Source: Escherichia phage F2. From it: a stretch of DNA of 64,000 nucleotides. Of this stretch, positions 636 through 60,829 are shown piece after piece (position 1 is the stretch's first letter; every line of letters starts with the position of its first letter). The DNA lies in the sequence record NC_054913.1; one strand, 5' to 3'. The position numbers and the translations under genes were made by a program. Under the pieces are notes generated by a model. The model was not told the DNA's origin, searched no databases, and was given only the letters and a program-made list of their open reading frames with translations.

Positions 636-1628
636 ATGTTACCTGTCATCAGAAAACTTATTTCTCCAAAAGAACTGGCTGAGATTATTCCTTTGTCGGA
701 AGCTTACGCATCACAAGTGGCTTCTCATCGCGAACAAGTTAATTCGATTATGAACGGTGAAGACCCACGCAAACTTATTGTTGTAGGTCCTTGTTCAATT
801 CATGACCCTATTGCTGCTGTTGAATACGGCAAACGTCTGGCTGAACTTCAAACTCGTCTTCCTAATGTTCTGTTAGTGATGCGCGTTTATTTTGAAAAGC
901 CTCGAACTACCGTAGGTTGGAAAGGTCTTGTAAATGATCCATATCTTGACGGAAGTTTTGATATGAACCACGGTCTTATAGTTGCACGAACATTGTGTCG
1001 TAAACTTCTACGTATGGGACTTCCATTAGCAACTGAAGTATTAGACCCATTCACGATTAAGTATCTTTCTGGTATTTTCTCATGGGTTGCTATTGGCGCC
1101 CGTACGACTGAAAGTCAGACACATCGTGAAATTGCTTCAGGTCTACCGATGTGCGTAGGCTTCAAGAACGCAACCAATGGTTCTATTAAAGTAGCTACAG
1201 ACGCGATGTATAGTGCCGCCTGGCCTCATCGGTATATGGGTATGGACGTCGATGGTACTGTAGGCATTGTTGAAGCTGAAGGTAATCAGAATACGCATAT
1301 CGTATTGCGTGGCGGGACCAACGGCCCGAACTATCATTCTTCTGATATTCAAGAAGCTTCTAACAAAGCAAGGGCAGTAGGTCTGAATCATTATGTAATG
1401 GTTGACTGTAGCCATGCAAACGCTGATGGTCATTATAGCAATCAAATTGGTATTGGTAAAAATTTAGCAGCTAATGATTTGGTCAAAGGAATTATGATAG
1501 AATCATTCCTACATGAAGGAAATCAAAAAATTTCTGATAATATGTCCTATGGCGTTTCCGTTACCGATGCGTGCATCAGTTGGGAACAAACTAAAGAGCT
1601 GTTAACTTATATTAATAAGGTTCAATAA
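636..1628 (+). CDS. 3-deoxy-D-arabino-heptulosonate-7-phosphate (DAHP) synthase, class I (AroG/F/H-like)
   Basis: 330 aa; blocks LIVVGPCSIHDP, MRVYFEKPRTTVGWKGL, IGARTTESQTHRE, GFKN, HIVLRGG, GIMIESFLHEGNQ match class I DAHP synthases; stop overlaps cd start (TAATG). Confidence 0.9.
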   Translation: MLPVIRKLISPKELAEIIPLSEAYASQVASHREQVNSIMNGEDPRKLIVVGPCSIHDPIAAVEYGKRLAELQTRLPNVLLVMRVYFEKPRTTVGWKGLVNDPYLDGSFDMNHGLIVARTLCRKLLRMGLPLATEVLDPFTIKYLSGIFSWVAIGARTTESQTHREIASGLPMCVGFKNATNGSIKVATDAMYSAAWPHRYMGMDVDGTVGIVEAEGNQNTHIVLRGGTNGPNYHSSDIQEASNKARAVGLNHYVMVDCSHANADGHYSNQIGIGKNLAANDLVKGIMIESFLHEGNQKISDNMSYGVSVTDACISWEQTKELLTYINKVQ

Positions 1629-2209
1629 TGAAAGCTAGCACATACCTTCAGATTGCATATCTGATTTCTCAAGAATCAAAATGTTGTTCATGGAAAGTTG
1701 GCGCAGTCATTGAAAAAGATGGGCGCATTATTTCTACTGGGTATAACGGTTCACCTGCAGGTGGCGTTAACTGTTGCGAACATGCATCTGAAAATGGTTG
1801 GTTGAAGAATAAACCAAGCCCGGTCATCGTTGCTGGACATAAAGAAGGCACTACAGCATTTGGACGGGTGGATAATTTTGTTTTGGCTAAAGAACATCGG
1901 GCCGCTCATAGTGCATGGTCTGCTAATAACGAAATCCATGCTGAATTGAATGCAATTTTGTTTGCAGCTCGTAAAGGTAATTCTATTGAAGGTGCTACGT
2001 TATATACGACGCTTTCTCCGTGTCCTGATTGCACTAAAGCTATTACGCAGTCAGGTATTAAAAAGGTTGTATACGCAGAATTATATGACAGATCTCCTGA
2101 AAATTGGGCAGACATTCTAAAACAAGCTGGTATTGAAGTAATTCAGTACTCTCGTAATAATCTTCGTTCTCTGAATTGGGAACAAATCCGAAACTTTTGT
2201 GGTGAATAA
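1628..2209 (+). CDS. cd: dCMP deaminase
   Basis: 193 aa as in T4 Cd; zinc-binding HAELNA and SPCPDC motifs of the cytidine/dCMP deaminase fold. Confidence 0.9.
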   Translation: MKASTYLQIAYLISQESKCCSWKVGAVIEKDGRIISTGYNGSPAGGVNCCEHASENGWLKNKPSPVIVAGHKEGTTAFGRVDNFVLAKEHRAAHSAWSANNEIHAELNAILFAARKGNSIEGATLYTTLSPCPDCTKAITQSGIKKVVYAELYDRSPENWADILKQAGIEVIQYSRNNLRSLNWEQIRNFCGE

Positions 2210-2210
2210 T

Positions 2211-2507
2211 ATGATTTTAACTGAACAGGAAACTATGGTTCTTCGTGAACGTATTAAAACTATTCTGTCTGTAGGCGTTCATTGTGTTGTATTTGAAAAG
2301 GCTAACGGTGAGGTACGCACTATGTTTGCTTCGCGCGATGAACTTGAAGTCAAATATGAAAATAACAATCCGGCAACAGAAGTTCGTTATGAACCTCGTG
2401 AATCAGTTCGAGCATTCGATACCAAGTTAGGTCAGTGGCGTTCTTTCCGCCTTGATAAAGTAATTTCGGTTGATGGTACTCCTGTAGAACGTTTGCTTCT
2501 TATGTAA
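2211..2507 (+). CDS. hypothetical protein (gene 31.x-like position)
   Basis: ORF with ATG at 2211 just after the cd stop; track start at 2199 is GTG. Confidence 0.5.
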   Translation: MILTEQETMVLRERIKTILSVGVHCVVFEKANGEVRTMFASRDELEVKYENNNPATEVRYEPRESVRAFDTKLGQWRSFRLDKVISVDGTPVERLLLM

Positions 2508-2534
2508 TATGCTTTACGAATAGTATGGTATTAT
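2508..2534 (+). promoter_or_regulatory. putative MotA-dependent middle promoter upstream of gene 31
   Basis: MotA-box-like TGCTTTA at 2510-2516 and TATTAT 12 bp downstream at 2529-2534. Confidence 0.45.
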
Positions 2535-2564
2535 TAATCTATCGTCAAACAACAAGGAAATAAG

Positions 2565-2897
2565 ATGTCTGAAGTACAACTCCCAATTCGTGCTGTTGGT
2601 GAATATGTCATTCTGGTTTCTGAACCCGCTCAAGCAGGTGATGAAGAAGTTACAGAATCAGGACTTGTGATTGGTAAACGTGTTCAAGGTGAAGTTCCTG
2701 AACTATGTGTAGTTCATTCTGTAGGTCCTGATGTTCCTGAAGGTTTTGTTGAAGTCGGTGATTTGACTCCACTACCAGTTGGACAAATTCGAAATGTTCC
2801 ACATCCATTTGTGGCTTTGGGACTTAAACAACCTAAAGAAATTAAACAGAAATTCGTAACATGCCACTATAAAGCTATTCCGTGTCTTTATAAGTGA
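2565..2897 (+). CDS. 31: gp31 co-chaperonin (GroES-like)
   Basis: 110 aa; near-collinear with T4 gp31 from recall ([34 protein letters not shown] ... [13 protein letters not shown]). Confidence 0.85.
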
Positions 2898-3021
2898 TAT
2901 AAATAACTATATGAAGAGAACACTCTTCTAAGCGGTAGCCTACAACTGAGAGACTTGTCGAAAGAAGGTGAAATTCAGACGAACGTGGCTACTAAATATT
3001 ATCTCGAATTGAGAATTTAAA

Positions 3022-3270
3022 ATGATTAAACAATTACAACACGCTCTTGAACTGCAACGAAACGCATGGAATAACGGTCACGAAAACTACGGTGCGTCAA
3101 TTGATGTTGAAGCCGAAGCACTGGAAATCCTGCGATATTTCAAACATCTGAATCCTGCTCAGGCTACTCTGGCTTCTGAACTGGAAGCTAAAGATGAATT
3201 GAAATATGCTAAGCCTCTGGCTTCTGCAGCACGCAAAGCAGTTCGTCATTTTGTTATTACCCTGAAGTAA
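3022..3270 (+). CDS. hypothetical protein (82 aa)
   Basis: ORF in the hyperplastic 30.x region; no motif recognised. Confidence 0.45.
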   Translation: MIKQLQHALELQRNAWNNGHENYGASIDVEAEALEILRYFKHLNPAQATLASELEAKDELKYAKPLASAARKAVRHFVITLK

Positions 3271-3292
3271 GTTAAATCGAGGAGCCGTCGAA

Positions 3293-3484
3293 TTGTCTGA
3301 TTATCGATTTGCGAATCGGTATGTTTTAGAAGTACCGCCCCGACAATTTTACGGTGTACCTCTTGAATGTTACTATCATGCGTCAGAAAAGTGTTATCTG
3401 TGTAAGTCTTGGTGGTATGATGACGAGGTTTATGGTTATCCTGTCGTTAAATATCCAAAACCTATGTTCCCCTTGAGGGCTTGA
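3293..3484 (+). CDS. hypothetical Cys/Tyr-rich small protein
   Basis: 63-codon ORF with TTG start preceded by GAGGAG; weak. Confidence 0.3.
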   Translation: MSDYRFANRYVLEVPPRQFYGVPLECYYHASEKCYLCKSWWYDDEVYGYPVVKYPKPMFPLRA

Positions 3485-3532
3485 GCAGGCCATGTCAATA
3501 AGTCCTGCATTTTCATTTAAAGAGAATTTATA

Positions 3533-3712
3533 ATGGCAAAACAAGCTAAAGCAAAGAAAGCAGTTGAAAAGAAAGTTGATGGTACCTCTAAACGCGCTGG
3601 ATACAAGCGTGGGTCGAACTCTCGTATTAATCAAACAGTTGAGAAGATCATGCGCAGAGCACGTGCAGTTCTTCGAGATGATGCTTCTCGTTTTGGAAAG
3701 GTTGTTGCATAA
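3533..3712 (+). CDS. small highly basic protein (59 aa), not in the ORF track
   Basis: ATG at 3533; translation MAKQAKAKKAVEKKVDGTSKRAGYKRGSNSRINQTVEKIMRRARAVLRDDASRFGKVVA; followed by a terminator hairpin. Confidence 0.45.
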   Translation: MAKQAKAKKAVEKKVDGTSKRAGYKRGSNSRINQTVEKIMRRARAVLRDDASRFGKVVA

Positions 3713-3717
3713 TTTTA

Positions 3718-3740
3718 GGGAGACTTCGGTCTCCCTTTTG
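3718..3740 (+). terminator. rho-independent terminator hairpin
   Basis: GGGAGAC-TTCG-GTCTCCC followed by TTTTG. Confidence 0.6.
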
Positions 3741-3772
3741 TGCGTTTAGGGCAGAAAAAGTTTAAAAAAGAT

Positions 3773-3801
3773 GTTTACTCTCCTGTAGGATGTGTTACTA
3801 T
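3773..3801 (+). promoter_or_regulatory. T4-type early promoter
   Basis: GTTTAC at 3773-3778, 17-bp spacer, TACTAT at 3796-3801; downstream block shared with the other early promoters. Confidence 0.55.
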
Positions 3802-3842
3802 AGACTTGTACCACCTAATCAATAAAACAATCGGAGAATAAA

Positions 3843-4211
3843 ATGAAAATCAATCTGAACTCATACATCAAATGTAAAGACCACGACGGTTATAAAGCTA
3901 TCGAAATTAAAGAATTCCAGTGGATGTTATACAAAGAGCAATTTGAGTTCGTAGGTTGTATGACCCCTGAAGGTCCTTCAGATGATTTCTCTTGGAAAAT
4001 TGTGTTAGCAAACTTTTTCACAGGTGACACATACGAATTAAAAACTATTATTACCGGTAAAATTCGTTCAGAAACATATGTTGACGAAGAAACTGGTTAC
4101 TCTGAAGATGTTACATGGTATCAAAATGGACGCATTACAGCAGATAACCTGATCGAAAAAATGAAAGCCAAAGGTGTTTTAAATTTAGACAATTGGATTA
4201 AAGTTGCATAA
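3843..4211 (+). CDS. hypothetical protein (ORFan, 122 aa)
   Basis: ORF with RBS GGAGAATAAAATG and its own early promoter. Confidence 0.55.
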   Translation: MKINLNSYIKCKDHDGYKAIEIKEFQWMLYKEQFEFVGCMTPEGPSDDFSWKIVLANFFTGDTYELKTIITGKIRSETYVDEETGYSEDVTWYQNGRITADNLIEKMKAKGVLNLDNWIKVA

Positions 4212-4215
4212 AACA

Positions 4216-4255
4216 GTTTACTTTGGTACAGGTTATGTTATTATAGACCTGTACC
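4216..4255 (+). promoter_or_regulatory. T4-type early promoter with stem-loop (PeSL-like)
   Basis: GTTTAC at 4216-4221, 17-bp spacer, TATTAT at 4239-4244; perfect 8-bp inverted repeat GGTACAGG (4225-4232) / CCTGTACC (4248-4255). Confidence 0.6.
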
Positions 4256-4285
4256 AACAAACAACTTAAACATCTGGAGAATAAA

Positions 4286-4651
4286 ATGAACTACACCAAC
4301 TTCGAACGCAAATATGTTTCTAACGGTATCGCTGGTTCTATCGATATGGTTTGTTTGTGGAAGCATAAAAATGGTTCAGTATGTGAAATTGAGCAGTGCA
4401 TGACTCCTAATTATGTTTATATGCGATTTGAAAATGGCATCACTGTTTCAATCACGATGGAAGGTTCCAACTTCAAAATTGCATTAGATGACGATTTCCG
4501 TCAACGTGATTTAGGTACTCATCCTTGCTGGAACGGTGTTAATCGTAAACTTCTGGTTAAAACTTGGATTCGTCATATCCTGAGTAACCGAGCTAAACCT
4601 GAACATCTCGAAGCAATCTTTGATGTAGTTCTTAACGAATTCGATATCTAA
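4286..4651 (+). CDS. hypothetical protein (ORFan, 121 aa)
   Basis: ORF with RBS GGAGAATAAAATG and its own promoter and hairpin. Confidence 0.55.
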   Translation: MNYTNFERKYVSNGIAGSIDMVCLWKHKNGSVCEIEQCMTPNYVYMRFENGITVSITMEGSNFKIALDDDFRQRDLGTHPCWNGVNRKLLVKTWIRHILSNRAKPEHLEAIFDVVLNEFDI

Positions 4652-4658
4652 TTTAACT

Positions 4659-4674
4659 GGGAGCTTCGGCTCCC
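4659..4674 (+). terminator. stable hairpin (putative terminator or RNA-stability element)
   Basis: GGGAGC-TTCG-GCTCCC; no T-run follows. Confidence 0.4.
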
Positions 4675-4686
4675 ACTGAGGAAATT

Positions 4687-5301
4687 ATGTTTAAAGTTAA
4701 TACTTTTTATAAAATGAATTTTAAAAATGGGGATATTACTCCACGCCTTAAAAACATGTTCTCATATGACCTTATCGAGCCTTTTGAAGTTTTAGAAGTT
4801 ACTGATGCCGGCTCGGTTTGTGAAATTAGAACTTCTGAAGGTAAAATTTATCAGGCAGGTGTTGGTAAATTCAGTAATTGTTTTACTTTAATATTCTCGA
4901 CCGATTTAGATGAGCATTTTATTGAATGTCCTAACCCTAAGGTCCACGAAGTTCCACATCAAGAAACTAAGAAAAATGGCCCGCACGAATATACGAAGGT
5001 TGAAACTCCTCACGGCGTGATGTGGCGTCATAACTCTCCTTTTGGAAGTAAAGGAACATTTGCTCAACCGTCTAAACCGTATGACGATGAAAAATACATC
5101 GTCGTCTTTTTATCTGAACAGGGTACTCAAGACAGTGGATGCCAACGTTCCGGTTTATTGAGTGAACTTGAAGCTCATAACCAAGCACGTGAATTCGTTG
5201 AGAAAAATCCTGGTTCTGAAGCTCTAGTCATGAAAGCAATTACTCAATATATCACTGCTCAACCTGTTGTTCATCCAGTAGAAATTAATTTCGTTAAGTA
5301 G
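4687..5301 (+). CDS. hypothetical protein (ORFan, 204 aa)
   Basis: long ORF with RBS GAGG before the ATG; no motif recognised. Confidence 0.55.
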   Translation: MFKVNTFYKMNFKNGDITPRLKNMFSYDLIEPFEVLEVTDAGSVCEIRTSEGKIYQAGVGKFSNCFTLIFSTDLDEHFIECPNPKVHEVPHQETKKNGPHEYTKVETPHGVMWRHNSPFGSKGTFAQPSKPYDDEKYIVVFLSEQGTQDSGCQRSGLLSELEAHNQAREFVEKNPGSEALVMKAITQYITAQPVVHPVEINFVK

Positions 5302-5331
5302 TTTACATCCAAGGACGGATTAGAGTATAAT
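5301..5331 (+). promoter_or_regulatory. putative early promoter
   Basis: GTTTAC at 5301-5306, TATAAT at 5326-5331; spacer 19 bp, slightly long. Confidence 0.4.
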
Positions 5332-5355
5332 GATTTCTTTAGTAAGTGGAAAAAT

Positions 5356-5553
5356 ATGAAATTTTTAATAGCACAAACAGTTCAATTAAAAGGTGTTGGA
5401 ATTCCTGGGGTGATTTTTAAAGTTCTCCCTGAATTTAAAACCGGCGCTGGAATTATCAATGAAGCGTATGCTGTTCAATGGGTTGATTGGACTTCTGACA
5501 TACGTATGGGTAAAGAGTTATCTCCTATTAAAGGGTTGAAACATGTTGAATAA
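5356..5553 (+). CDS. hypothetical small protein (65 aa)
   Basis: ORF; no motif. Confidence 0.4.
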   Translation: MKFLIAQTVQLKGVGIPGVIFKVLPEFKTGAGIINEAYAVQWVDWTSDIRMGKELSPIKGLKHVE

Positions 5554-5755
5554 ATTAATCCAGAAATTGTTTGGTACGGAAATGATCGAAGTTACTTATC
5601 GTGTAACAGACTGCTCGCCTATTCATCCACAGGATGAACCGTTTATCAAGACAATTAAAATGCTTAAAAATGACGGTGGTTTATCTATTGAAGACCGTCT
5701 GCCTAGTTACGGACATTGGGCTGATGTTGAAATTATAAGTGTTAAAGATGTCTGA
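5543..5755 (+). CDS. hypothetical small protein (70 aa)
   Basis: ORF overlapping the neighbours at both ends. Confidence 0.4.
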   Translation: MLNKLIQKLFGTEMIEVTYRVTDCSPIHPQDEPFIKTIKMLKNDGGLSIEDRLPSYGHWADVEIISVKDV

Positions 5756-6206
5756 ATTAGAAATAAGAAGCAATTTCAAATGGCCGTCATGCGCATTAAG
5801 TAATTTCGCCCAATGGCCTTTTGTTATGGATGGTATTCAATTCGGAGGACTTGAAGGATTTCTCCAAGGATGTAAGGTGAAAAATGTTGAACAACAAAGA
5901 CGTATATTTGGGCTGTCAGGACTGGCCGCACAGCAAGCTGGAAGGTCTTATGCAAGAGCTCAGGACCATGGGACTCTCTTCTGGTTAGGAGTTCCATTTT
6001 CAAGATACTCTGAAGCATGGAAAGAATTATATACAAATGCATATTTTGAAGCAGCGATCCAAAACAAGGGGTTTCGCGACGCCTTACAAGCCTCTAAAGG
6101 AAAAATTTTGAAGCACAGCATGGCCAGCCACCTAACAAAAGATGATACAATATTAACTGAAGCTGAATTTATTGATGTGTTAAACCTATTAAGAGACTCT
6201 TTATGA
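5748..6206 (+). CDS. NADAR-domain protein (YbiA-like; putative ADP-ribose or N-glycoside hydrolase)
   Basis: LSNFAQWP and DGIQFGGLEGFLQGCKV match the NADAR signature as recalled from E. coli YbiA (FSNFAAWP, DGKTWPTSEHYFQAQKF); ATG at 5748; stop overlaps next start (ATGA). Confidence 0.65.
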   Translation: MSELEIRSNFKWPSCALSNFAQWPFVMDGIQFGGLEGFLQGCKVKNVEQQRRIFGLSGLAAQQAGRSYARAQDHGTLFWLGVPFSRYSEAWKELYTNAYFEAAIQNKGFRDALQASKGKILKHSMASHLTKDDTILTEAEFIDVLNLLRDSL

Positions 6207-7018
6207 AGCCTACTATTTTGACTGATATTGATGGTGTATGTTTAAGCTGGCAATCTGGACTTCCTTATTTTGCCCAAAAATATAATCTTCCATTAGAACA
6301 TATTTTAAAAATGATTCAGGACGAAAAATTTATTTCTCCTGGTAAACTGTTCAATACCGACGATAACCTTGGTAAACAATTAATAGAAAAATATAATAGC
6401 TCTGATTTTATTCGTTACTTAGCGCCTTATTCGGATGCTCTTCGAGTTATCAATAAACTAAAAGAAGACTATAATTTTGTAGCCGTGACGGCGCTAGGTG
6501 ATTCAATTGATGCTCGATTGAATAGACAATTTAATTTGAATGCTTTGTTCCCAGGCGCTTTTTCTGAAGTAATGATGTGTGGTCATGATTCGTCAAAGGA
6601 ACAATTATTTGAACTAGCTAAAACAAAATATAACGTGATTTGTTACGTTGACGATTTAGCTCATCACTGTGACCATGCGGCAGAAATTCTTAATGTACCG
6701 ATTTATTGGTTGGCTCGTGGTGAACGTGATGATATTCCTCGCACTGCACAACGTGTACACACGTGGGATGATATTGAATCTCGTTTGGTTTCACCCGAGC
6801 ATAATTCAGATTCAGATCGTGAAGACCTTTTAAAACGATTGGCGGATTTGCTTAAAGAATCTGGTGCAACAAGTCCAGGTGCATGGCCTAATCAAATTGG
6901 CGCTCCGTCGAATCCGTATACCTGGCGAAACCAAGGACCGACTGATATGCAGCCATGGTGGACGATTCAAAACTTTCCTTTAGATTCGTCCAAATGGACT
7001 TGGTCTACAAATTGTTAA
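6203..7018 (+). CDS. HAD-superfamily phosphatase (5'(3')-deoxyribonucleotidase-like) with a Trp-rich C-terminal extension
   Basis: HAD motifs DIDGV (motif I), VAVTAL (II), conserved Lys, YVDD (IV); C-terminal ~80 aa unrelated and W-rich. Confidence 0.6.
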   Translation: MKPTILTDIDGVCLSWQSGLPYFAQKYNLPLEHILKMIQDEKFISPGKLFNTDDNLGKQLIEKYNSSDFIRYLAPYSDALRVINKLKEDYNFVAVTALGDSIDARLNRQFNLNALFPGAFSEVMMCGHDSSKEQLFELAKTKYNVICYVDDLAHHCDHAAEILNVPIYWLARGERDDIPRTAQRVHTWDDIESRLVSPEHNSDSDREDLLKRLADLLKESGATSPGAWPNQIGAPSNPYTWRNQGPTDMQPWWTIQNFPLDSSKWTWSTNC

Positions 7019-9030: not shown

Positions 9031-11118
9031 ATGTCTGAACAATTAAATGAAGTGTTTGAATCTGAAGGCAGTCTTCCTGTCGTCAATTTGAACCCTAAAG
9101 CTAAAGTTCCACAAGTCTGGAAAATTGGTGATATCGATACAAACATCGTAGTTCGCTTATTCTCTTACCTTTCTGAAGGCGATGCTGTAAAACAAGTTAA
9201 ACTTGGCGACAAATACGCTCATGTTGTTATTATGAGTCTGTCTGAAAAGGGTAATCTCGCTGAATTGAAAAATGGCCTTGGTCCTGCTCCTATTGATGCA
9301 ATCAACACCATTTTCAATACGGTATATGAACAGGTTAAAGCTCTTCGTATGGATGCAGTTCTGTTCCGGTTCCCTACCAAGAAATTGAAAGGACGTGGAC
9401 AACAGCTTCAAACTCTTCTTGCTCGTTTAGTTTCTACTAAAACTGGCGGTCGTTTTAAAGTATTGTCAGCAATGTATCAATTCACAGGTAAACACACCTA
9501 TGTGATGATGGTTCGTAAAAATGCCAACATTGAAGATATTAAAGGCATCCCTAACATTAACACAGAGTTGTACACGAAAGTAGATTCTGATGTTGGCGAA
9601 GTTTATGTGAGTAAAAAGACTGGTGAAATGGTCACCAAAGAAGCGGCTATCGCTGGTTCTATTGCTGCTGTAGAAGAAAAACGTAAAGATAAGCCTGTTA
9701 TTGCTCGTACTAAAATTTCTCGTCGTGCTATTGCAGCAAGTCAATCTTTAGAAGCTGACCGCCAAGAAGGTGAGTTATTCCAGAAATACGAAAATTCTGC
9801 TAAAGAAGTTAGTGGCCCAGCTACAGCCGAATTACTTCCTGAAGCATATGAAATCGTACTAGCCCAAGCATCGTCCACAGCAAAAGGCACTTTAGTTGCT
9901 GATATCGAAAATAAGATTTATAATCGTATTGATGAATCCTTTAGATTTGCTGATGAAGTTTCTTATGGTAGTGTTATTAAGCCAACTTTAGAAAAGTTTG
10001 CTAAGAAAATTAAAACTGAAAAAACAACATCTGTTAAAGCATTAGCTGCTTTTGTTGAAGCTGCAAATGAAATTGCAGACTCTATTAAAGACGAATGGTT
10101 TGAAGATTTTAGACGTGATAATTTCCAACTGGCCGACGACGTTTTAGCTGAAGTATCTGAAAAAACTTGGAAACAACGTAAATCAGCGTTCTTGTCTAAT
10201 GTGATGTATACTTATGCACGAGAATCGGCTAGAGGCACCTTTAATATAACAATGAATCGGGACCCTAAACAATACTCTGTTGCTGAAAAACGAGCTATTC
10301 GTGAATATGCCTCTTCTGCGTATACCGATATCAATAATATGTTGTTAGGTCGTTATAAACCAGATTTTTACGATGTTGCAGATGAAGATGAAGTTAAACG
10401 CGCTATTGATGGTCTTGATTCGGCGTTTTTAAATGGAGACCGTTTACCTGAAGGACTAACGTTATATAGAGCCCAGTCTATCAGAATGCCTATTTACGAA
10501 GCAATGGTTAAAAATAAGGTATTCTACTTCAGAAACTATGTTTCCACTTCACTAGCTCCTATTATTTTCGGTGGGTTTAAAGAGAACGTTGCCCTTGGAC
10601 TTGCTCCTGAAGAAGTTCGCAAAGAGCTTAACATTGACAATAATGACGAAGGTGTTACTATTTCTCCTAGTCAAGTAAGAACAGCTATGCATGCACCAGA
10701 CCAAATCCGTGTTAACGTTGGATGGGCTATTGATGGCGCCCATAAAGTTAACGTGATTTATCCTGGACAGTTGAGTAATCACCCTAATGAGCAAGAAATT
10801 ATTTTGCCTAGAGGCATTCTCTTGCAGATAAATAAAATTACGGATGCGTCATCTGACACTGGTGCAGGTTTAGAATCCAACCTTAAATTTATTCAAGCTG
10901 AAGTCATGTCCTCAGACCAGTTGGACGAAGTTGTCATTTACGATGGTGATGTTCTCATGGAAACAGGCGAGGTGGTTGCTATGACTGGTGAAATCGAATC
11001 AGATGAGCCGATATCGTTCTCCTCATTTGTAGAAAAAACTAGTGCTCCTAAAGGATTGAAATTGTTAGCATCTTTAATGGATTTAGAATCAGTTCCGTTT
11101 AAATTTGTCCAAGGATAG
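9031..11118 (+). CDS. alt: Alt-type ADP-ribosyltransferase (capsid-packaged, modifies host RNA polymerase)
   Basis: 695 aa versus T4 Alt 682; position between gene 30 and gene 54; ART motifs YRAQS (Arg), YVSTSLA (STS), QEIILPRG (catalytic Glu region). Confidence 0.75.
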   Translation: MSEQLNEVFESEGSLPVVNLNPKAKVPQVWKIGDIDTNIVVRLFSYLSEGDAVKQVKLGDKYAHVVIMSLSEKGNLAELKNGLGPAPIDAINTIFNTVYEQVKALRMDAVLFRFPTKKLKGRGQQLQTLLARLVSTKTGGRFKVLSAMYQFTGKHTYVMMVRKNANIEDIKGIPNINTELYTKVDSDVGEVYVSKKTGEMVTKEAAIAGSIAAVEEKRKDKPVIARTKISRRAIAASQSLEADRQEGELFQKYENSAKEVSGPATAELLPEAYEIVLAQASSTAKGTLVADIENKIYNRIDESFRFADEVSYGSVIKPTLEKFAKKIKTEKTTSVKALAAFVEAANEIADSIKDEWFEDFRRDNFQLADDVLAEVSEKTWKQRKSAFLSNVMYTYARESARGTFNITMNRDPKQYSVAEKRAIREYASSAYTDINNMLLGRYKPDFYDVADEDEVKRAIDGLDSAFLNGDRLPEGLTLYRAQSIRMPIYEAMVKNKVFYFRNYVSTSLAPIIFGGFKENVALGLAPEEVRKELNIDNNDEGVTISPSQVRTAMHAPDQIRVNVGWAIDGAHKVNVIYPGQLSNHPNEQEIILPRGILLQINKITDASSDTGAGLESNLKFIQAEVMSSDQLDEVVIYDGDVLMETGEVVAMTGEIESDEPISFSSFVEKTSAPKGLKLLASLMDLESVPFKFVQG

Positions 11119-11152
11119 TTTACAAACACATGGATGTGTGATACTATCATCC
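11118..11152 (+). promoter_or_regulatory. T4-type early promoter (PeSL-like)
   Basis: GTTTAC at 11118-11123, TACTAT at 11142-11147, imperfect inverted repeat GGATG / CATCC around the -10. Confidence 0.5.
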
Positions 11153-23234: not shown

Positions 23235-23441
23235 ATGGGATTGATTATGAGAGTTGAAGTTGAAGTTTATACATTACATGAGGCGGGATTTTCATTCGTA
23301 GAAATTGCTCAAAAAATCGGTTTACAACCTAAAGAAGTTGGATTACTATGGACTAAAGCCGAGACAGCTCGGTCAAAGTTTAAAGCAAAAGAAAAAGTTG
23401 TATACCGTAAACGTTTGATTAACAGAAAGGTGAAGAAATGA
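23235..23441 (+). CDS. hypothetical small protein (possible HTH)
   Basis: 68-aa ORF; alternative start at 23247. Confidence 0.4.
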   Translation: MGLIMRVEVEVYTLHEAGFSFVEIAQKIGLQPKEVGLLWTKAETARSKFKAKEKVVYRKRLINRKVKK

Positions 23442-23689
23442 GTTTTGCACAGGAATTAAGAGAAAGGGCCCTGGCCACTAAAGCCAATTTGTTGAAAGAT
23501 TTTATTGCTAACTTCTCTGTGATGGCAGAGAAAGCCGCTGACAAAGGCCAGACACAATTTACATACTATCCGTCAAAGAATGATTTAACTATCACCGAGC
23601 AAATCGGGGAGTGGTTCCGTGATAACGGCTTTCAGTACAAAATTAATCACGACCAGCGTGATGGGCACTGGATAGAAATCAAGTTCTAG
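23438..23689 (+). CDS. hypothetical protein (83 aa)
   Basis: ORF overlapping the upstream stop (ATGA). Confidence 0.5.
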   Translation: MSFAQELRERALATKANLLKDFIANFSVMAEKAADKGQTQFTYYPSKNDLTITEQIGEWFRDNGFQYKINHDQRDGHWIEIKF

Positions 23690-23808: not shown

Positions 23809-24816
23809 ATGTTTAAGAAATACAGCAGTCTTGAAAACCACTACAACTCTAAGTTTATTGAAAAACTCTACACTAATGGTTTGACTACTGGTGTTTGGGT
23901 AGCACGTGAGAAAATCCATGGGACCAACTTCTCGTTAATAATTGAACGTGACAACGTCACATGCGCCAAGCGCACAGGCCCTATTCTTCCAGCAGAAGAT
24001 TTTTACGGCTATGAAATCGTACTCAAGAAGTATGATAAAGCTATTAAAGGTGTTCAAGAAGTCATGGAAAGTATTTCAACTTCAGTGCCGGTGTCATATC
24101 AAGTCTTTGGTGAATTCGCCGGTGGTGGAATCCAGAAAGGTGTTGACTACGGTGAAAAAGATTTTTATGTGTTCGATATCATCATAAACACGGAAAGTGA
24201 TGATACTTATTATATGAGTGATTACGAAATGCAAGATTTCTGTAATACGTTTGGTTTTAAAATGGCACCAATGCTTGGTCGTGGAACATTTGATTCTCTT
24301 ATCATGATTCCAAATGACCTTGATTCCGTCTTAGCCGCTTATAATGCTACTGCGTCAGAAGACCTTGTAGAAGCAAATAATTGTGTATTTGATGCTAATG
24401 TTATTGGCGATAATACGGCAGAAGGTTATGTTCTGAAGCCTTGTTTCCCTAAATGGCTGCCAAACGGTACTCGTGTAGCTATTAAGTGCAAGAACTCTAA
24501 ATTCAGTGAAAAGAAAAAGTCAGATAAGCCTATTAAAACTCAGGTTCCATTATCCGAAATTGACAAAAACTTGCTTGATGTTCTAGCTTGTTATGTTACA
24601 TTAAATCGTGTTAATAATGTGATTTCTAAGATTGGGACTGTAACGCCAAAAGATTTTGGCAAAGTGATGGGATTGACTGTTCAAGATATTCTGGAAGAAA
24701 CTTCTCGTGAAGGTATTGTATTAACATCATCTGATAATCCGAATCTTGTTAAGAAAGAATTAGTCCGAATGGTGCAAGATGTTCTGCGTCCTGCATGGAT
24801 TGAATTAGTATCATAA
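23809..24816 (+). CDS. rnlB: RNA ligase 2
   Basis: 335 aa; near-collinear with T4 Rnl2 from recall ([21 protein letters not shown] ... [12 protein letters not shown] ... [11 protein letters not shown]). Confidence 0.85.
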
Positions 24817-24817
24817 C

Positions 24818-24846
24818 GAAAAAGGGACCGTAAGGTCCCTTTGTTT
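24818..24846. terminator. bidirectional terminator between rnlB and gene 24
   Basis: AAAGGGACC-GTAA-GGTCCCTTT flanked by A and T runs. Confidence 0.6.
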
Positions 24847-26129
24847 TATTCATCAATAATAATTTTTGGTAGCTTAACACCTAATAAAACAGACAAATCT
24901 GAACGTCCTGCCATTTTATCCATGTCCCCACCATCAATTACTCTCGCTTCTTTTTCATCTTTTGCTACTGTGTAAGGATTCGCAGATAAAGCATATCTAA
25001 CCAATAATCCGATAGATGGTTGCAAGCTTTCTGGATCAACTACGACTTTAAATGCACCGACATGTTCCGGGTCATCTAAATCTACTCCTTCAGTGTATGG
25101 AGCATAAAAGATGGACCCCACAATTTCTTTTTCGCCGATATTTTCTACAACACCCACAATAACATAATCTAACGGACTGTTGGTATCGCAGTAAAGAGGT
25201 AATCCATTTGCCAAGAATCCATAAGCATTTTGTGAAAGATACTTGTCATCTTCTGGCTTATGTTTTAACCAACCAGAAGCAGCAAGAATAGCAGCTGCAC
25301 GAGCTGAGGCTACACAAAACGTTGCAGTATAAGTTGTCTCTTTTTGAATGTGTGATACCATTTCACACACCATTCGATATAATGAACGACCTGCTTCTGG
25401 AGCGGATGCATAGCTCAAGTCAATAAATCCGGTGTCAGTAATTCCAGTAACTTTATAACGTTTCGATACAGTAATTAAAGACTGAAGAATATCTTTATTA
25501 ATTTCATCAGCCATTTCAGTAGCAAGCAAATCTTCTAAGAAGTTAGGGGCATCAAATCCATTCGCTTCCAAATCTTGCGCTAATTCAACCGTGAGGCCAG
25601 TTTTAAGTTTACGAGATTTGACTGAAGTTTGCCATTTATTAATCTGGAATCTTGCATCAGAAATTTCGCTATCAGAGCTTTCAAATTTGCTTGTTACCGC
25701 TGCATCTGAAAATAACCGTACCTTTAAATGAACGACTGCAATCTGAAGAGCTAATTCTAGATCACTTTCTTGAATATCTGCAAATGGTGTATCTTCTAAC
25801 ACTTTATAGACGATATTATTATATTTGAAAAAATCGCCTTTATTTAGTGTGACTTTTGATTCTTCTGTGAGCTCAGTAATTTTTTCTCGGTCTACATATC
25901 CAACTTCACCAGCATAAGTAGCACCAGTTTTAAATGTGAATTCGTTATCTGGGTTAAGATATTTGATACCATAAAAAGCAGCAACAGGTTGATTAGTTCT
26001 TTGTGTTGCTACAATGTCAGAATATATTAATTTAGTCGTAGCGCGAGTCAAAGCAACGAGATTTGGGCGACCGATTGAGTTGCTAGTAGACGTTGTAGAT
26101 TCACGCAATAATTTTTGGATTTTACTCAT
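24846..26129 (-). CDS. 24: head vertex protein gp24
   Basis: 427 aa as T4 gp24; gp23 paralogue. Confidence 0.85.
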   Translation of the reverse strand: MSKIQKLLRESTTSTSNSIGRPNLVALTRATTKLIYSDIVATQRTNQPVAAFYGIKYLNPDNEFTFKTGATYAGEVGYVDREKITELTEESKVTLNKGDFFKYNNIVYKVLEDTPFADIQESDLELALQIAVVHLKVRLFSDAAVTSKFESSDSEISDARFQINKWQTSVKSRKLKTGLTVELAQDLEANGFDAPNFLEDLLATEMADEINKDILQSLITVSKRYKVTGITDTGFIDLSYASAPEAGRSLYRMVCEMVSHIQKETTYTATFCVASARAAAILAASGWLKHKPEDDKYLSQNAYGFLANGLPLYCDTNSPLDYVIVGVVENIGEKEIVGSIFYAPYTEGVDLDDPEHVGAFKVVVDPESLQPSIGLLVRYALSANPYTVAKDEKEARVIDGGDMDKMAGRSDLSVLLGVKLPKIIIDE

Positions 26130-26159
26130 TGCATTTTTTCCTTATTGAGAATATAATTT

Positions 26160-26167
26160 TATTTATA
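26160..26167 (-). promoter_or_regulatory. late promoter for gene 24
   Basis: TATTTATA on + (TATAAATA on -) 31 bp before the gene 24 start. Confidence 0.5.
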
Positions 26168-26173
26168 AAAGTG

Positions 26174-26203
26174 GTTTACACACAAAAAGTGTTGTGTTAC
26201 TAT
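26174..26203 (+). promoter_or_regulatory. T4-type early promoter
   Basis: GTTTAC at 26174-26179, 18-bp spacer, TACTAT at 26198-26203, shared downstream block TAGACCTATCAA. Confidence 0.55.
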
Positions 26204-26232
26204 AGACCTATCAAAACATGAGGAGATTAAAA

Positions 26233-26499
26233 ATGAACAAATTAAACTTTATCCGTACCACACTTTCTAACCTTGACAAAGACATCAAAGCTCTGGTAGA
26301 AAAATTTGGTACCAATCCTAATGGTAATGCAGTTAATGCATTGGTTAAGAAATACGAAGCCCTGGCTTATGAAACTGACTTCTGGTGGAACGGTGAATAT
26401 TCTACCCATACCAAAGACAAATCTGGTAACTGGCTGAAAATCCAAGAAAATCGTATTGACTTCCGTGATATCATCAACCGTCGTGTCAAAGCAGCGTAA
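26233..26499 (+). CDS. hypothetical protein (88 aa)
   Basis: ATG 26233 after RBS GAGGAG; track start at 26218 is upstream in frame. Confidence 0.5.
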   Translation: MNKLNFIRTTLSNLDKDIKALVEKFGTNPNGNAVNALVKKYEALAYETDFWWNGEYSTHTKDKSGNWLKIQENRIDFRDIINRRVKAA

Positions 26500-26502
26500 A
26501 TT

Positions 26503-27162
26503 ATGAATTATTTAATTTACAAAATAACCAATCTCATTAATAACAAGATTTATATTGGAGCCCATGCCACTACAGATGTTAACGATTCTTATATGGGTTC
26601 CGGGGTTAACATAGTAAAATCCATAAAGAAATACGGCTTAGAGAATTTTAAAAAGGAAATCCTTTTCAATTTCGAAACATCTGAAGAGATGTATGCTAAG
26701 GAAGCCGAACTAGTTGACGAGGCTTTTGTCATGAGAACAGATACTTATAATGCCGCCTTAGGCGGCAAGGGTAATCCTGTTATAGTAGCTTTACAGGAAC
26801 CTGGGTATCGTGAGATGTTATCCGAAAAGACAAAAGCTGGTATGACTGAAGAAGTTCGGGCCAAAATATCTAAAAAGAAATTAGGTTCTAAAGAATCTAA
26901 AGAACATCGAGAAAACAAATCTATATCAAATAAAAAGTTTTATAAAAATAGAGATTCTCATCTTAAAGGTAGAAAACTATCAGAAGAGCATAAAGCAAAA
27001 ATTAGAAAGAATTCTAATAAAGGTAAGAAATTTGTATTTGTGGATATTTCTATTAAAGGTCATGAATTTAACCACTACGATTACGCTGCCGAATTCTTTA
27101 ACGTATCCGCAAAAACTATAAGAAATTGGATTAATGAACGCGATGATTGTTTTAAGCTATAG
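26503..27162 (+). CDS. GIY-YIG homing endonuclease (segD-like position)
   Basis: N-terminal YLIYKITN...IYIGAH GIY-YIG motif with downstream E and N residues; T4 has segD between genes 23 and 24. Confidence 0.75.
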   Translation: MNYLIYKITNLINNKIYIGAHATTDVNDSYMGSGVNIVKSIKKYGLENFKKEILFNFETSEEMYAKEAELVDEAFVMRTDTYNAALGGKGNPVIVALQEPGYREMLSEKTKAGMTEEVRAKISKKKLGSKESKEHRENKSISNKKFYKNRDSHLKGRKLSEEHKAKIRKNSNKGKKFVFVDISIKGHEFNHYDYAAEFFNVSAKTIRNWINERDDCFKL

Positions 27163-27172
27163 AAACAAGAAT

Positions 27173-27190
27173 GGGAGACCGGAGTCTCCC
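27173..27190. terminator. hairpin between convergent genes (putative terminator)
   Basis: GGGAGAC-CGGA-GTCTCCC. Confidence 0.45.
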
Positions 27191-27219
27191 ATAAGGTTAT
27201 GTATTTTAACGTTAAAGCA

Positions 27220-28788
27220 TTAAATTCCTTTAACGTAGACGCGTCTAAAGTAAGCGTTCTTACCAAGGCTGTTCAGGATAGACGGCATACCGGACTGGAT
27301 GCGAGCACCTGGAGCCTGCAGGGAACTTTCAGCAAACGGGTTAACACCGATACCGTAACGAGTTTTAAAGCCCATTACTGGCTGGAAGTTCTTAGGATCG
27401 GAACCACGTAGTGGGGTAAGTGCAACGTAAGGAGCATAGTAAATACCTGCATCCATTTCGTTAGCGCCTTTGTAACCAACGGTGAAGTAATCCTGTTTAG
27501 CATACTGGTCGATGTATACTCGGTATTTACCACCAAGTACACCGGCAAATACAGATTTAGTAGTGTCGGTATTAAAACCAGAAGCCAGACCCTGTGCAGC
27601 ATAAGAAATACCAGTATCAACTGAAGCCAGTACGTTAACTACGTTACGGGAAGCGATAATGAAGTTACCTTCACCACGACCGGTTTGACGAGCAATTTCA
27701 ACTGCTTCTTTATCAATCTGGAACAACAGAGCTTTAAAGCTTTCACCGGCCCAACGAGCACCACGGATATCAATCGGGTCCTGGAAGTCAAATACACCAG
27801 CTTTAGAACCAACGATATTAGTCATACCAGATTTACCAACCTGAGCGGAGTAGTTAATCCAGTCAACAACTTCACGGTTGATTTCCAGCATAATTTCAGT
27901 GGCAAGAATACCGCTCAGTTCAGCATCAGCATCCATACCGTGTACTGCACGGAGGTCTTGTGCCAATTCGATGGAGTAAGCTGCTTTCAGCTGACGAGAT
28001 TTAGCTTCAATAACTTGTTTGTCGATACGGAAGCCCATTTCGTTCCACGGGTTGTCGGTAGAACCATTGAAGCCTTCCTGAAGTTCAGCGATAGAAGTAG
28101 CCATACCTTCAGCGATTTCTACCAGTACACCAGCTTCCATTTGTTTCTTAATTTCAGCATCCAGTTTAGTTGCATCGGTAGCGCCAGCATCGATTGTTAC
28201 TACAGCGGAAGCTTGTAGATACACAGTACCAGTTTCCTGGAAGAAGTGAGTATAGATATCACCTACAACGGTTTGTGTGCTAGCAGCCAGAGCTGGGAAT
28301 TTCTTAGCAGCACCCTGACCAGAGAACATCGCGTCTGGAGCATACATCGGATGGAAAGCTTCTTTAGCGTCAGCAGCGATAGGGTCTTTACCATATACTG
28401 CACGGAGAGCAAATACCTGACCGGTAGGGCTGTTCATAGGCTGAACACCACAAATATCGAAAGCGATCAGATTAGGAATAGCACGACGAACCATACCCAT
28501 AACTGCCGGCCCAATCTGGGTTACTGCACCAGAGGTTTGACCTGCTGCGATGTTCTGAGCATTATAACCATGGTCGCCACCAATTTCAGCTTCGGTCAAG
28601 AAAGAACCAAATGCCTGAGCGATTTTCTCGTCTTTATATTCAGGGGATACTTCGAAATCTTTTTCCTGGTTTTCGAAGATTTTAGCGATAATAGCCTGCT
28701 TGCTATTAGCGATTTCCGGCAGGCCTTCACCTTCCAGCAGTTCTTTCCATTTGTCTACGAGCTGAGCTTTAGTTTTGATAGTAGTCAT
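27220..28788 (-). CDS. 23: major capsid protein gp23
   Basis: 522 aa; near-collinear with T4 gp23 from recall (GEGLPEIANSKQAIIAKIFENQEKDF ... AFGSFLTEAEIGGDHGYNA). Confidence 0.95.
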   Translation of the reverse strand: MTTIKTKAQLVDKWKELLEGEGLPEIANSKQAIIAKIFENQEKDFEVSPEYKDEKIAQAFGSFLTEAEIGGDHGYNAQNIAAGQTSGAVTQIGPAVMGMVRRAIPNLIAFDICGVQPMNSPTGQVFALRAVYGKDPIAADAKEAFHPMYAPDAMFSGQGAAKKFPALAASTQTVVGDIYTHFFQETGTVYLQASAVVTIDAGATDATKLDAEIKKQMEAGVLVEIAEGMATSIAELQEGFNGSTDNPWNEMGFRIDKQVIEAKSRQLKAAYSIELAQDLRAVHGMDADAELSGILATEIMLEINREVVDWINYSAQVGKSGMTNIVGSKAGVFDFQDPIDIRGARWAGESFKALLFQIDKEAVEIARQTGRGEGNFIIASRNVVNVLASVDTGISYAAQGLASGFNTDTTKSVFAGVLGGKYRVYIDQYAKQDYFTVGYKGANEMDAGIYYAPYVALTPLRGSDPKNFQPVMGFKTRYGIGVNPFAESSLQAPGARIQSGMPSILNSLGKNAYFRRVYVKGI

Positions 28789-60793: not shown

Positions 60794-60829
60794 GTTTACA
60801 TAAGGATGATGGTGTGTTACTATCATCCT
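60794..60829 (+). promoter_or_regulatory. T4-type early promoter with stem-loop (PeSL-like)
   Basis: GTTTAC at 60794-60799, TACTAT at 60818-60823; 8-bp inverted repeat AGGATGAT / ATCATCCT around the -10. Confidence 0.6.

Follow-up and report, generated by a model that had tools for sequence, protein, structure and literature searches.

A SegD-type endonuclease gene probably inserted behind a resident, predicted early gene between head genes 24 and 23 of Escherichia phage F2

In Escherichia phage F2, a Mosigvirus-like T4-type phage, two closely spaced genes lie between two head genes, and the locus raises the question of whether this pair moves as one unit or was brought together at the site. 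We analyzed a stretch of 64,000 nt from the F2 record (NC_054913.1; one strand, 5′ to 3′), hereafter the window. A sequence-only reading of the window had described an 88-aa ORFan followed 3 bp later by a GIY-YIG endonuclease gene, on the strand opposite to gp24 and gp23, and had suggested that the ORFan is a cargo gene co-mobilized with the endonuclease. The layout was recovered with matching coordinates (Table 1), the ATG of the endonuclease gene lying exactly 3 nt past the TAA of the 88-aa ORF. Such an arrangement is ordinary for T4-like phages, and none of its components is new, all being annotated in GenBank.

Table 1. Coordinates of the features of the gp24-gp23 region of phage F2, as positions in the window.
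Feature	Position	Strand	Remarks
gp24	24846-26129	-	flanking head gene
Dhakavirus-type block	26130-27249	.	from sliding-window and segment identities
gp24 late promoter box	26160-26167	-	TATTTATA, the reverse complement of the T4 late-promoter box TATAAATA
Candidate early sigma-70-type promoter	26174-26203	+	-35 GTTTACA, 17-nt spacer, TGn and -10 TACTAT; from a consensus scan
SD of the 88-aa ORF	26220-26225	+	GAGGAG; 7 nt 5′ of the ATG
88-aa ORF	26233-26499	+	antisense to gp24 and gp23
Left junction of the endonuclease insertion	26480-26502	+	last 7 ORF codons, stop codon and 3-nt spacer
GIY-YIG endonuclease gene, 219 aa	26503-27162	+	antisense to gp24 and gp23
Terminator hairpin	27171-27192	.	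between convergent units
gp23 (major capsid gene)	27220-28788	-	flanking head gene
Last 10 codons of gp23, recoded	27220-27249	-	right edge of the foreign block

The product of the endonuclease gene aligned end to end with T4 SegD (59% identity, 130 of 221 residues; E = 2e-88), and the two genes share locus and orientation, which bears out the remark that T4 has segD here. The GIY-YIG call likewise stood: the protein passed the cut-off of the I-TevI-like model TIGR01453 (56.5 bits against 56.05, residues 5-214) and matched phrog_314 (E = 5e-54) and the PADLOC HEase model (E = 8.9e-23), and two Pfam families scored just under their cut-offs (SegE_GIY-YIG, 23.1 against 25; GIY-YIG, 15.9 against 22.6). 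The motifs LIYKITN, KIYIGAH, EMYxxEAxLV, and TYNAAxGG are common to the endonuclease and T4 SegD. Pfam matches in the C-terminal part were weak and under the cut-offs (NUMOD3, E = 0.063; HTH_17, E = 0.0082), and the alignment with T4 SegD extends over this part, including the stretch KTIRNWIN; a sequence search against solved structures gave no match for the endonuclease. Five endonuclease-bearing alleles were inspected, each with an intact reading frame, and dN/dS of the gene was 0.10-0.12. By these comparisons, the 219-aa protein is a full-length ortholog of SegD and is predicted to act as a free-standing GIY-YIG homing endonuclease.

The upstream ORF is present as described but is not an ORFan. 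Its product matches phrog_6003 (E = 1.2e-48), and the ORF was found in 118 phage records; homologs include RB69ORF188c (31% identity) and, via the copy in VR7, JS98 ORF173c. A further homolog is found in Acinetobacter phage ABPH49, where its surroundings are unrelated. With dN/dS of 0-0.10 for the ORF, both genes are under purifying selection (dN/dS about 0.1). An AlphaFold2 model of the 88-aa protein (pLDDT 93) consists of three helices and a β-hairpin. A fold search with this model returned no informative match, searches of Pfam and PADLOC with the protein returned none, and NCBIfam gave only a sub-threshold chance match. Our best guess is that the product is a small early host-interaction protein.

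The states of the 24/23 gap among relatives were measured using a query of joined flanks together with fetched loci. The gap was found empty in RB32, RB6, and T2 (about 83 nt), occupied by segD only in T4 (about 811 nt), by the ORF only in PhAPEC2, HX01, JS10, PSD9, VR7, and SQ17 (about 420-437 nt), and by both genes in F2 (1090 nt). The allele of PhAPEC2 is a divergent homolog of the RB69ORF188c type, and six other sampled Mosigviruses have a gap equal in size to that of PhAPEC2. Of the 118 records that carry the ORF, about 82 are without the endonuclease, and the ORF fills the gap in about 80 records of Dhakavirus and Gaprivervirus that have no endonuclease; the ORF-only state occurs in all three genera (SQ17, Mosigvirus; PSD9 and JS10, Dhakavirus; VR7, Gaprivervirus). 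T4 and three other lineages have a SegD-like gene but no ORF at the site (seen in T4, PYPS2T, L017, L030, and L035), and SegD-like genes recur at the 24/23 junction in several genera and in both orientations. The 88-aa gene unit, that is promoter, gene, and terminator, is a resident of Mosigvirus, Dhakavirus, and Gaprivervirus.

The F2 locus is mosaic. The block listed in Table 1 is 96-100% identical to the Dhakaviruses 04086, PSD9, 005, and UP19, whereas gp24 of F2 is 99% identical to that of PhAPEC2 and 62-67% identical to those of Dhakaviruses, and gp23 beyond codon -10 is 99 and 83% identical, respectively. The junctions of the block fall exactly at the start of gp24 and 10 codons inside gp23. 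One mobile cassette with the ORF as cargo has in its favor that both genes lie on this foreign block and that their linkage is close: the adjacent ORF is found in all 36 records in which the endonuclease is at least 80% identical, and of 29 records with the Dhakavirus-type ORF allele on a Mosigvirus backbone, 28 have the endonuclease too, SQ17 being the exception. These counts are not independent events, as the 28 block-bearing records may stem from one transfer. We nevertheless judge the cassette decidedly unlikely in view of the ORF family standing at the site without the endonuclease in Dhakavirus and Gaprivervirus, the divergent ORF allele at the site in the endonuclease-free sampled Mosigviruses, the SegD-like genes without the ORF, and the ABPH49 homolog. 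Moreover, IME08 matches F2 at 91% identity in the ORF and at 98% in the 5′ half of the endonuclease gene, showing that the histories of the two genes are uncoupled. Thus, the comparison of relatives found the ORF conserved essentially independently of the endonuclease, the pattern that the sequence-only reading had itself named as contrary to its cargo proposal, and that proposal is not upheld. The 28/29 linkage on the foreign block fits allele replacement by homing co-conversion rather than a two-gene mobile cassette, and F2 probably acquired its ORF allele by co-conversion, as flanking DNA of the endonuclease gene.

The signals around the two genes were consistent with a resident unit. The late promoter of gp24, which had been placed just upstream of an early promoter, is present at that position; its box lies 31 nt 5′ of the gp24 ATG and is conserved throughout the aligned relatives, even in RB32 and T2, whose 83-nt spacers are empty. 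An early-type promoter ahead of the 88-aa ORF was also found as claimed, in the form of a TTTACA box (26175-26180) and a TACTAT box (26198-26203) preceded by TG. The pattern GTTTAC-N16-18-TANNAT matched seven times within the 64-kb window, always on the + strand, compared with a shuffle mean of 0.87, and none of 100 shuffles reached seven; the early (+) strand of the window is thus enriched for this class of promoter. Both boxes are conserved, with a variable spacer, in JS10, VR7, PhAPEC2, T4, L017, L030, and L035, and it is this conservation, together with the consensus, that suggests promoter function and early timing. The hairpin that had been given at 27173-27190 as separating the convergent transcripts is present with the limits measured here (Table 1). 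It has 9 bp and -17 kcal/mol, with z about -4 on both strands, and a T-rich tail on the - strand only (the gp23 side). It was found at empty, ORF-only, and SegD-only sites alike, and its stems vary yet remain self-complementary (GGGAGAC/GTCTCCC, GGGAACC/GGTTCCC, GGGAGAGC/GCTCTCCC). The hairpin is a resident terminator.

In some respects the unit resembles the PeSL modules of T4-like phages (Arbiol et al., 2010; Comeau et al., 2014). The F2 sequence TTTACA-N17-TACTAT fits the T4/PST PeSL promoter consensus TTTACW-N17-TAYWAT (PMC4122927), and the unit, a small gene framed by a promoter of its own and a stem-loop terminator, is present or absent among relatives and has a homolog in an Acinetobacter phage. 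Unlike in PeSL modules, the stem-loop lies downstream of the unit, the element upstream of the early promoter is the gp24 late promoter and not a terminator, and the site is inside a conserved head-gene block rather than in a hyperplastic region. A full PeSL cassette was rejected because no stem-loop directly precedes the promoter and the site belongs to the head-gene core.

Comparison of alleles with and without the endonuclease located the boundaries of the insert. The left junction reads CGTCGTGTCAAAGCAGCGTAA in F2, IME08, and 005, and CGYCGAGTTAAGRTTGCATAG in the endonuclease-free SQ17, PSD9, and JS10; at the right edge, the insert reuses the backbone sequence TATAGAAACAAGA for the endonuclease stop codon. 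SQ17 is 98-100% identical to F2 on either side, is without 26503-27162, and has the endonuclease-free ORF end. The unit that varies between the two phages is the endonuclease plus about 20 nt, the ORF not included, and SQ17 may either reflect the state before insertion or have lost the gene secondarily. Within Dhakavirus, PSD9 and JS10 are without the insert and 005, UP19, 04086, and IME08 carry it. Close relatives thus differ in the presence or absence of the insert, whose boundaries are clean and whose neighboring genes are undamaged. In F2 the ORF is intact at 88 aa and ends K-A-A*, compared with K-I-A* in the endonuclease-free version; on direct translation, the endonuclease-free alleles proved to be full length, with differences confined to the last 2-3 residues. 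An altered C-terminus in these alleles, suggested by a tblastn alignment of residues 1-72 only, was an artifact.

We consider it likely that a SegD-family gene inserted behind a resident early gene and spread by homing with co-conversion of its flanks. On this account, an antisense early unit of promoter, 88-aa gene, and hairpin would already have been resident in the 24/23 gap when the endonuclease gene inserted at the extreme 3′ end of the 88-aa gene, ahead of the resident terminator, swapping the final ORF codons for its own version and leaving the ORF intact. The resident early promoter would then transcribe the endonuclease as a second cistron. In 04086 and UP19 the junction holds an SD for the endonuclease (GGAG or GAGG), whereas the same stretch in F2 is GCAGCG, without an SD for this gene. 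Translation in F2 would probably start by reinitiation of ribosomes that terminate 3 nt upstream, implying a low level of endonuclease. In other T4 endonuclease genes RNA structure hides the start codon; no significant structure of this kind was seen at the start of the F2 endonuclease gene (z = -0.47). During mixed infection the enzyme would cut endonuclease-free genomes near the junction, and repair of the break would copy the endonuclease-bearing genome together with flanking DNA. Such a homing repair would have carried the Dhakavirus-type block, consisting of the gp24 upstream region, promoter, ORF allele, endonuclease gene, hairpin, and 10 gp23 codons, into a Mosigvirus backbone. T4 Seg endonucleases are well known to co-convert the markers that flank them (review, PMC2988022; SegB, PMC2330249). 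The F2 locus would be a clean natural case in which an endonuclease gene drags a neighboring allele and the end of the essential capsid gene across genera, and such drag matters for the use of major-capsid and vertex genes as phylogenetic markers of T4-like phages.

T4 segD is the closest known counterpart. It likewise occupies the 24/23 gap antisense to genes 23 and 24 (PMC2988022), has an I-TevI-like architecture, and is directly followed by a terminator hairpin. T4 differs in having no 88-aa ORF, segD beginning where the ORF begins in other phages, whereas the F2 endonuclease gene is a second cistron without its own SD and the putative C-terminal DNA-binding part of its product has diverged. 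The region upstream of T4 segD aligns with the promoter and SD region of the F2 ORF, and this promoter-like element, homologous to the ORF promoter, contrasts with the review's statement that no promoter could be identified for T4 segD (PMC2988022). The genes for SegB, SegE, SegF, SegG, and MobE also lie intergenically by a conserved essential gene, with intact flanking ORFs, tight packing against the upstream ORF, and co-inherited flanks, but they are co-directional with their neighbors and have middle or late promoters (PMC2988022); the F2 gene is antisense to both neighbors and lies behind an early-type promoter.

T4 SegD has been reported not to home (Sokolov et al., 2018, as cited in PMC9523250), and the review argues for negligible expression of segD (PMC2988022). 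The F2 endonuclease gene might likewise be an immobile, silenced, or domesticated remnant, its distribution being due to ordinary recombination in the head region and not to homing. The degraded SD in F2 agrees with such a remnant, and general recombination and PeSL shuffling are known in T4-like phages (PMC2839356, PMC4122927). Against it stand the intact frame of the five inspected alleles and their low dN/dS, the block of 94-100% identity shared across two genera with exact junctions between flanking head genes of 62-83% identity, the recurrence of SegD-like genes at one junction in several genera and both orientations, and the enrichment of a recoded gp23 end among endonuclease-bearing lineages. 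We therefore regard a remnant as unlikely; in contrast to T4 SegD, the F2 subfamily has been transferred recently between genera.

The 3-nt spacing of the two genes within one predicted operon, and the ORF adjoining all close copies of the endonuclease, could also be read as marks of a functional pair, with the ORF product regulating or inhibiting the nuclease or both proteins acting together against a host defense or a competing phage. Each gene is widespread without the other, and the ORF product has no detectable likeness to nuclease inhibitors or to defense and anti-defense families in Pfam, PADLOC, NCBIfam, or fold searches, which makes such a pair highly improbable.

The right edge of the block alters the end of the major capsid gene. 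In F2 the last 10 codons of gp23 read TTT AGA CGC GTC TAC GTT AAA GGA ATT TAA, a synonymous recoding of TTC CGN to TTT AGA, and this AGA is the sole AGR among the 18 Arg codons of gp23 in F2, T4, and T2. The tail is 100% identical to that of Dhakavirus UP19 and 70% identical to that of Mosigvirus PhAPEC2, and the 540 nt beyond it are 83 and 99% identical, respectively. Most SegD-bearing lineages have the recoded tail (Fisher p = 8e-4, phylogeny not taken into account). It also occurs in the endonuclease-free T2, SQ17, L016, L021, L024, L034, L050, and L060, and the tail of T2 exactly equals that of T4. The recoding may confer immunity, or it may be a scar left by co-conversion. As a tentative joint proposal, which we hold to be possible rather than likely, the target of the SegD family would be the conserved end of gp23 with the terminator, the recoded tail would confer immunity, and the endonuclease would be driven by the early promoter and translationally coupled. 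If this is true, the endonuclease-free phages with recoded tails would be immune survivors, the failed homing of T4 SegD would be explained provided that T2 was the partner phage, and the F2 subfamily would represent the first case of a free-standing homing endonuclease of T4 type with an early promoter and translational coupling to a resident gene. T2 was reportedly the partner phage in the SegD crosses, and the SegD site is said to be identical in segD+ and segD- phages. The recoded tail offers a handle on the target and mobility of SegD.

The overall weight of the finding is low, the F2 gene being one more SegD-type selfish gene at a known site, annotated in dozens of genomes. The Dhakaviruses IME08 and IME341 carry segD-annotated genes in the same ORF-endonuclease arrangement, and cassettes identical or nearly identical to that of F2 occur in JQD51, PNJ-9, JK45, ATK47, and mobillu; the nucleotide identity of these to F2 is 88-100%, and their GenBank labels are "SegD homing endonuclease" and "hypothetical protein." IME08 differs from F2 in having a C-terminal variant of the endonuclease (223 aa; 3′ half of the gene 78% identical, falling to 67% nucleotide identity over the segment 27056-27143, which holds the last ~90 nt of the gene) and a gp23 tail that begins TTC CGT and ends in a TGA stop codon.

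The window belongs to a T4-type phage, and the region around the spacer between its head genes gp24 (vertex) and gp23 (major capsid), hereafter the 24/23 site, was 100% identical to that of Escherichia phage vB_EcoM_JQD51 and 95-99.8% identical to that of 27 other Mosigvirus-backbone records. A sequence-only reading had described a late box, an early promoter, an 88-aa ORF, an endonuclease gene and a hairpin at this site; all were found, and the observation was confirmed overall. The TAA of the ORF and the ATG of the endonuclease gene are separated by a 3-nt gap. A single copy of gene 24 followed by rnlB was seen in the window, SQ17 and PSD9, and a tandem duplication (24a/24b) in several Dhakaviruses and Gapriverviruses (JS10, VR7, IME08). 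In the JQD51 entry (PV204681.1; locus positions 1247-6019), GenBank product names are displaced by one gene, so that "RNA ligase" stands at gp24, "capsid vertex protein" at the 88-aa ORF, "hypothetical protein" at the endonuclease, "homing endonuclease" at gp23 and "major capsid protein" at gp22.

Features of the 24/23 site and its surroundings (window positions)
Feature	Position	Strand	Description
rnlB	23809-24816	+	
gp24	24846-26129	-	vertex
Late-promoter box	26160-26167	-	TATAAATA
Early-type promoter	26175-26203	+	sigma-70-type, TTTACA-17 nt-TACTAT, TG ahead of TACTAT; consensus scan
Shine-Dalgarno			GAGGAG, 7 nt before ATG of 88-aa ORF
88-aa ORF	26233-26499	+	
219-aa ORF	26503-27162	+	endonuclease
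Hairpin	27171-27192		9 bp; -17 kcal/mol, z about -4
gp23	27220-28788	-	major capsid
gp22, gp21		-	beyond gp23

The 219-aa protein was 59% identical to T4 SegD over its full length (E = 2e-88), matched phrog_314 and the PADLOC homing-endonuclease models, narrowly passed NCBIfam TIGR01453 ("group I intron endonuclease") and scored slightly below the cut-offs of the Pfam GIY-YIG models. In T4, segD likewise lies between genes 24 and 23 and antisense to them, as seen in the T4 locus and as described in the literature (PMC2988022). Judged by sequence, the protein is a full-length orthologue of SegD. The components are already known and annotated; the IME08 cassette has been labeled "SegD homing endonuclease" and "hypothetical protein" since its deposit, and PNJ-9 bears the same labels. 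An intact, unannotated 223-aa SegD-like ORF was also observed between the 88-aa ORF and gp23 in phage 04086 (OR842557.1; locus positions 984-1655). SegD-like GIY-YIG genes, 41-52% identical, occur in KP15-like Klebsiella phages (IMG/VR loci L056, L059 and L066, positions about 3677-4280), and the KP15 gene is annotated "SegD". The genes in these three loci directly abut the gp23 stop codon and are co-oriented with gp23, so the gp23 junction is used in both orientations.

The 88-aa ORF had been read as an ORFan and as cargo mobilized with the endonuclease, and both readings were rejected. The ORF matched phrog_6003 (E = 1.2e-48) and was found by tblastn in 118 phage records, about 82 of which lack the endonuclease. 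It stands alone at the 24/23 site of JS10 and PSD9 (Dhakavirus), VR7 (Gaprivervirus) and SQ17 (Mosigvirus), and the Mosigvirus PhAPEC2 carries there a divergent allele (31% identity; E = 3.5e-4 in an exhaustive search) annotated as similar to RB69ORF188c. All 36 records with an endonuclease at least 80% identical have the ORF adjacent. A dN/dS of 0-0.10 and an AlphaFold2 model with a pLDDT of 93 (three helices and a beta-hairpin) establish the ORF as a real gene; sequence and fold searches indicated no function. A homologue (41% identity) was also seen in Acinetobacter phage ABPH49 (locus positions 3001-3267), where its surroundings are co-oriented hypothetical genes and every head gene is distant, so the family exists beyond the 24/23 site too.

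Using joined gp24 and gp23 flanks as query and checking fetched loci, we distinguished four states of the gap: empty (about 83 nt; RB32, RB6, T2 and many Tequatroviruses), segD only (about 811 nt; T4, T4T), ORF only (about 420-437 nt; sampled endonuclease-free Mosigviruses, Dhakaviruses and Gapriverviruses) and ORF plus endonuclease (1090 nt; the window). Three further lineages, from IMG/VR (L017, L030, L035), likewise have SegD-like genes and no ORF. ORF-only sites, SegD-only sites and the many ORF records without endonuclease thus show that, in substance, the ORF is independent of the endonuclease. Upstream of T4 segD, locus positions 2402-2500 align with the promoter and Shine-Dalgarno region of the ORF (window 26130-26232) and contain a promoter-like ATTTACA-N17-TATTAT and a GGAG, both absent from the empty spacers of RB32 and T2. 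Because of this match, the T4 state may derive from an ORF-plus-segD ancestor through loss of the ORF.

A 2010 review assigns middle or late promoters to the free-standing endonuclease genes of T4 and states that a segD-specific promoter could not be found (PMC2988022). In contrast to T4's other such genes, the window endonuclease is antisense to its neighbors and lies behind an early-type promoter, which fits the T4/PST early consensus TTTACW-N17-TAYWAT (PMC4122927). Chance does not account for this promoter: 0.87 matches to GTTTAC-N16-18-TANNAT are expected in the window and seven were counted, every one on the + strand. The boxes are kept across genera and the spacer drifts. Other + strand matches to GTTTAC-N16-18-TA(C/T)TAT were located at 221-250, 3773-3801, 4216-4244, 11118-11147, 23320-23349 (closely preceding an 83-aa ORF, 23438-23689) and 60794-60823. 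The promoter spacer (26180-26197) holds a 6-bp inverted repeat, ACACAA...TTGTGT; the spacer as a whole is the same in the window and SQ17, has two substitutions in PSD9 and is a different one in JS10 and IME08.

Insertion boundaries were defined by aligning endonuclease-bearing junctions (window, IME08, 005, 04086, UP19) with free alleles (SQ17, PSD9, JS10). The left junction falls within the last seven codons of the ORF, reading CGTCGTGTCAAAGCAGCGTAA in the window, IME08 and 005 and CGYCGAGTTAAGRTTGCATAG in all three free alleles. The resident gene remains intact because the insert supplies a new ORF C-terminus: KAA*, KAE* or KVEA* where KIA* or KVA* would otherwise stand. The right junction, at TATAGAAACAAGA, is backbone sequence and provides the endonuclease stop codon. 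The hairpin is present in every gap state, including empty 83-nt spacers; it is a resident terminator and lies outside the insert. The endonuclease ATG of 04086 and UP19 is preceded, at a distance of 6-9 nt, by a Shine-Dalgarno (GGAG or GAGG) that lies within the replacement stretch. Because GCAGCG replaces it in the window, as also in IME08 and 005, the window endonuclease is probably translated by reinitiation after the ORF stop codon; no significant RNA fold masking its start was found.

Identity along the 24/23 site of the window
Segment	PhAPEC2	Dhakaviruses
gp24 5' part	99%	Dhakaviruses 62-67%
26130-26479 (gp24 upstream region, promoter, ORF)	52-76%	Dhakaviruses 96-98% (04086, PSD9; ORF also 005)
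Endonuclease gene 5' half	absent	Dhakaviruses 97-98% (005, 04086, IME08)
Endonuclease 3' half, hairpin, last 30 nt of gp23	70% (hairpin and gp23 tail; gene absent)	Dhakaviruses 99-100% (UP19)
Remaining gp23	99%	Dhakaviruses 83%

These identities indicate that a foreign block, itself recombinant, crossed a genus boundary and now lies in a Mosigvirus backbone. The Dhakavirus-type ORF occurs in 29 Mosigvirus-backbone records, 28 of which, possibly stemming from a single event, carry the endonuclease; the sequence of the exception, SQ17, fits a precursor and a secondary loss alike. Other sampled Mosigviruses have a spacer of the size of PhAPEC2's RB69-type spacer. Co-conversion of flanks is established for T4 Seg endonucleases (PMC2988022), and the Dhakavirus-type allele probably arrived as a co-converted flank. 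Of the co-mobilization idea, the cargo part is rejected, and co-transfer at the level of the allele is plausible.

As an element it is unremarkable and of a type known before, and the one new lead, which is testable, concerns the gp23 terminus. In a comparison of 77 loci, the canonical ending was TAC TTC CGN CGN GTA TAT GTT AAA GGT ATC TAA. A synonymous variant, TAC TTT AGA CG, was present in six of nine lineages with an antisense SegD-like gene, on several backbones (window, UP19, 005, T4/PYPS2T, L035, L030), and in 7 of 61 endonuclease-free loci (uncorrected Fisher test, p = 8e-4). Its AGA, codon 515 of 522 in the window (tail 27220-27249) and codon 514 in T4 and T2, is the sole AGR among 18 gp23 arginine codons in these three phages; PSD9 has none. 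The window compared with PhAPEC2, and UP19 compared with PSD9, both change over at TAC|TTT. Variant enrichment, the lone AGR codon, the shared switch point and the SegD genes abutting the gp23 stop point to the gp23 end or the terminator region as a candidate target of the SegD family, and to the recoded tail as either a putative immunity change or a putative scar of co-conversion. Sokolov reportedly found in 2018 that T4 SegD does not home. T2, which lay outside the 77-locus table, is endonuclease-free yet has a tail exactly matching T4's (locus positions 6459-6491), and this may bear on that report.
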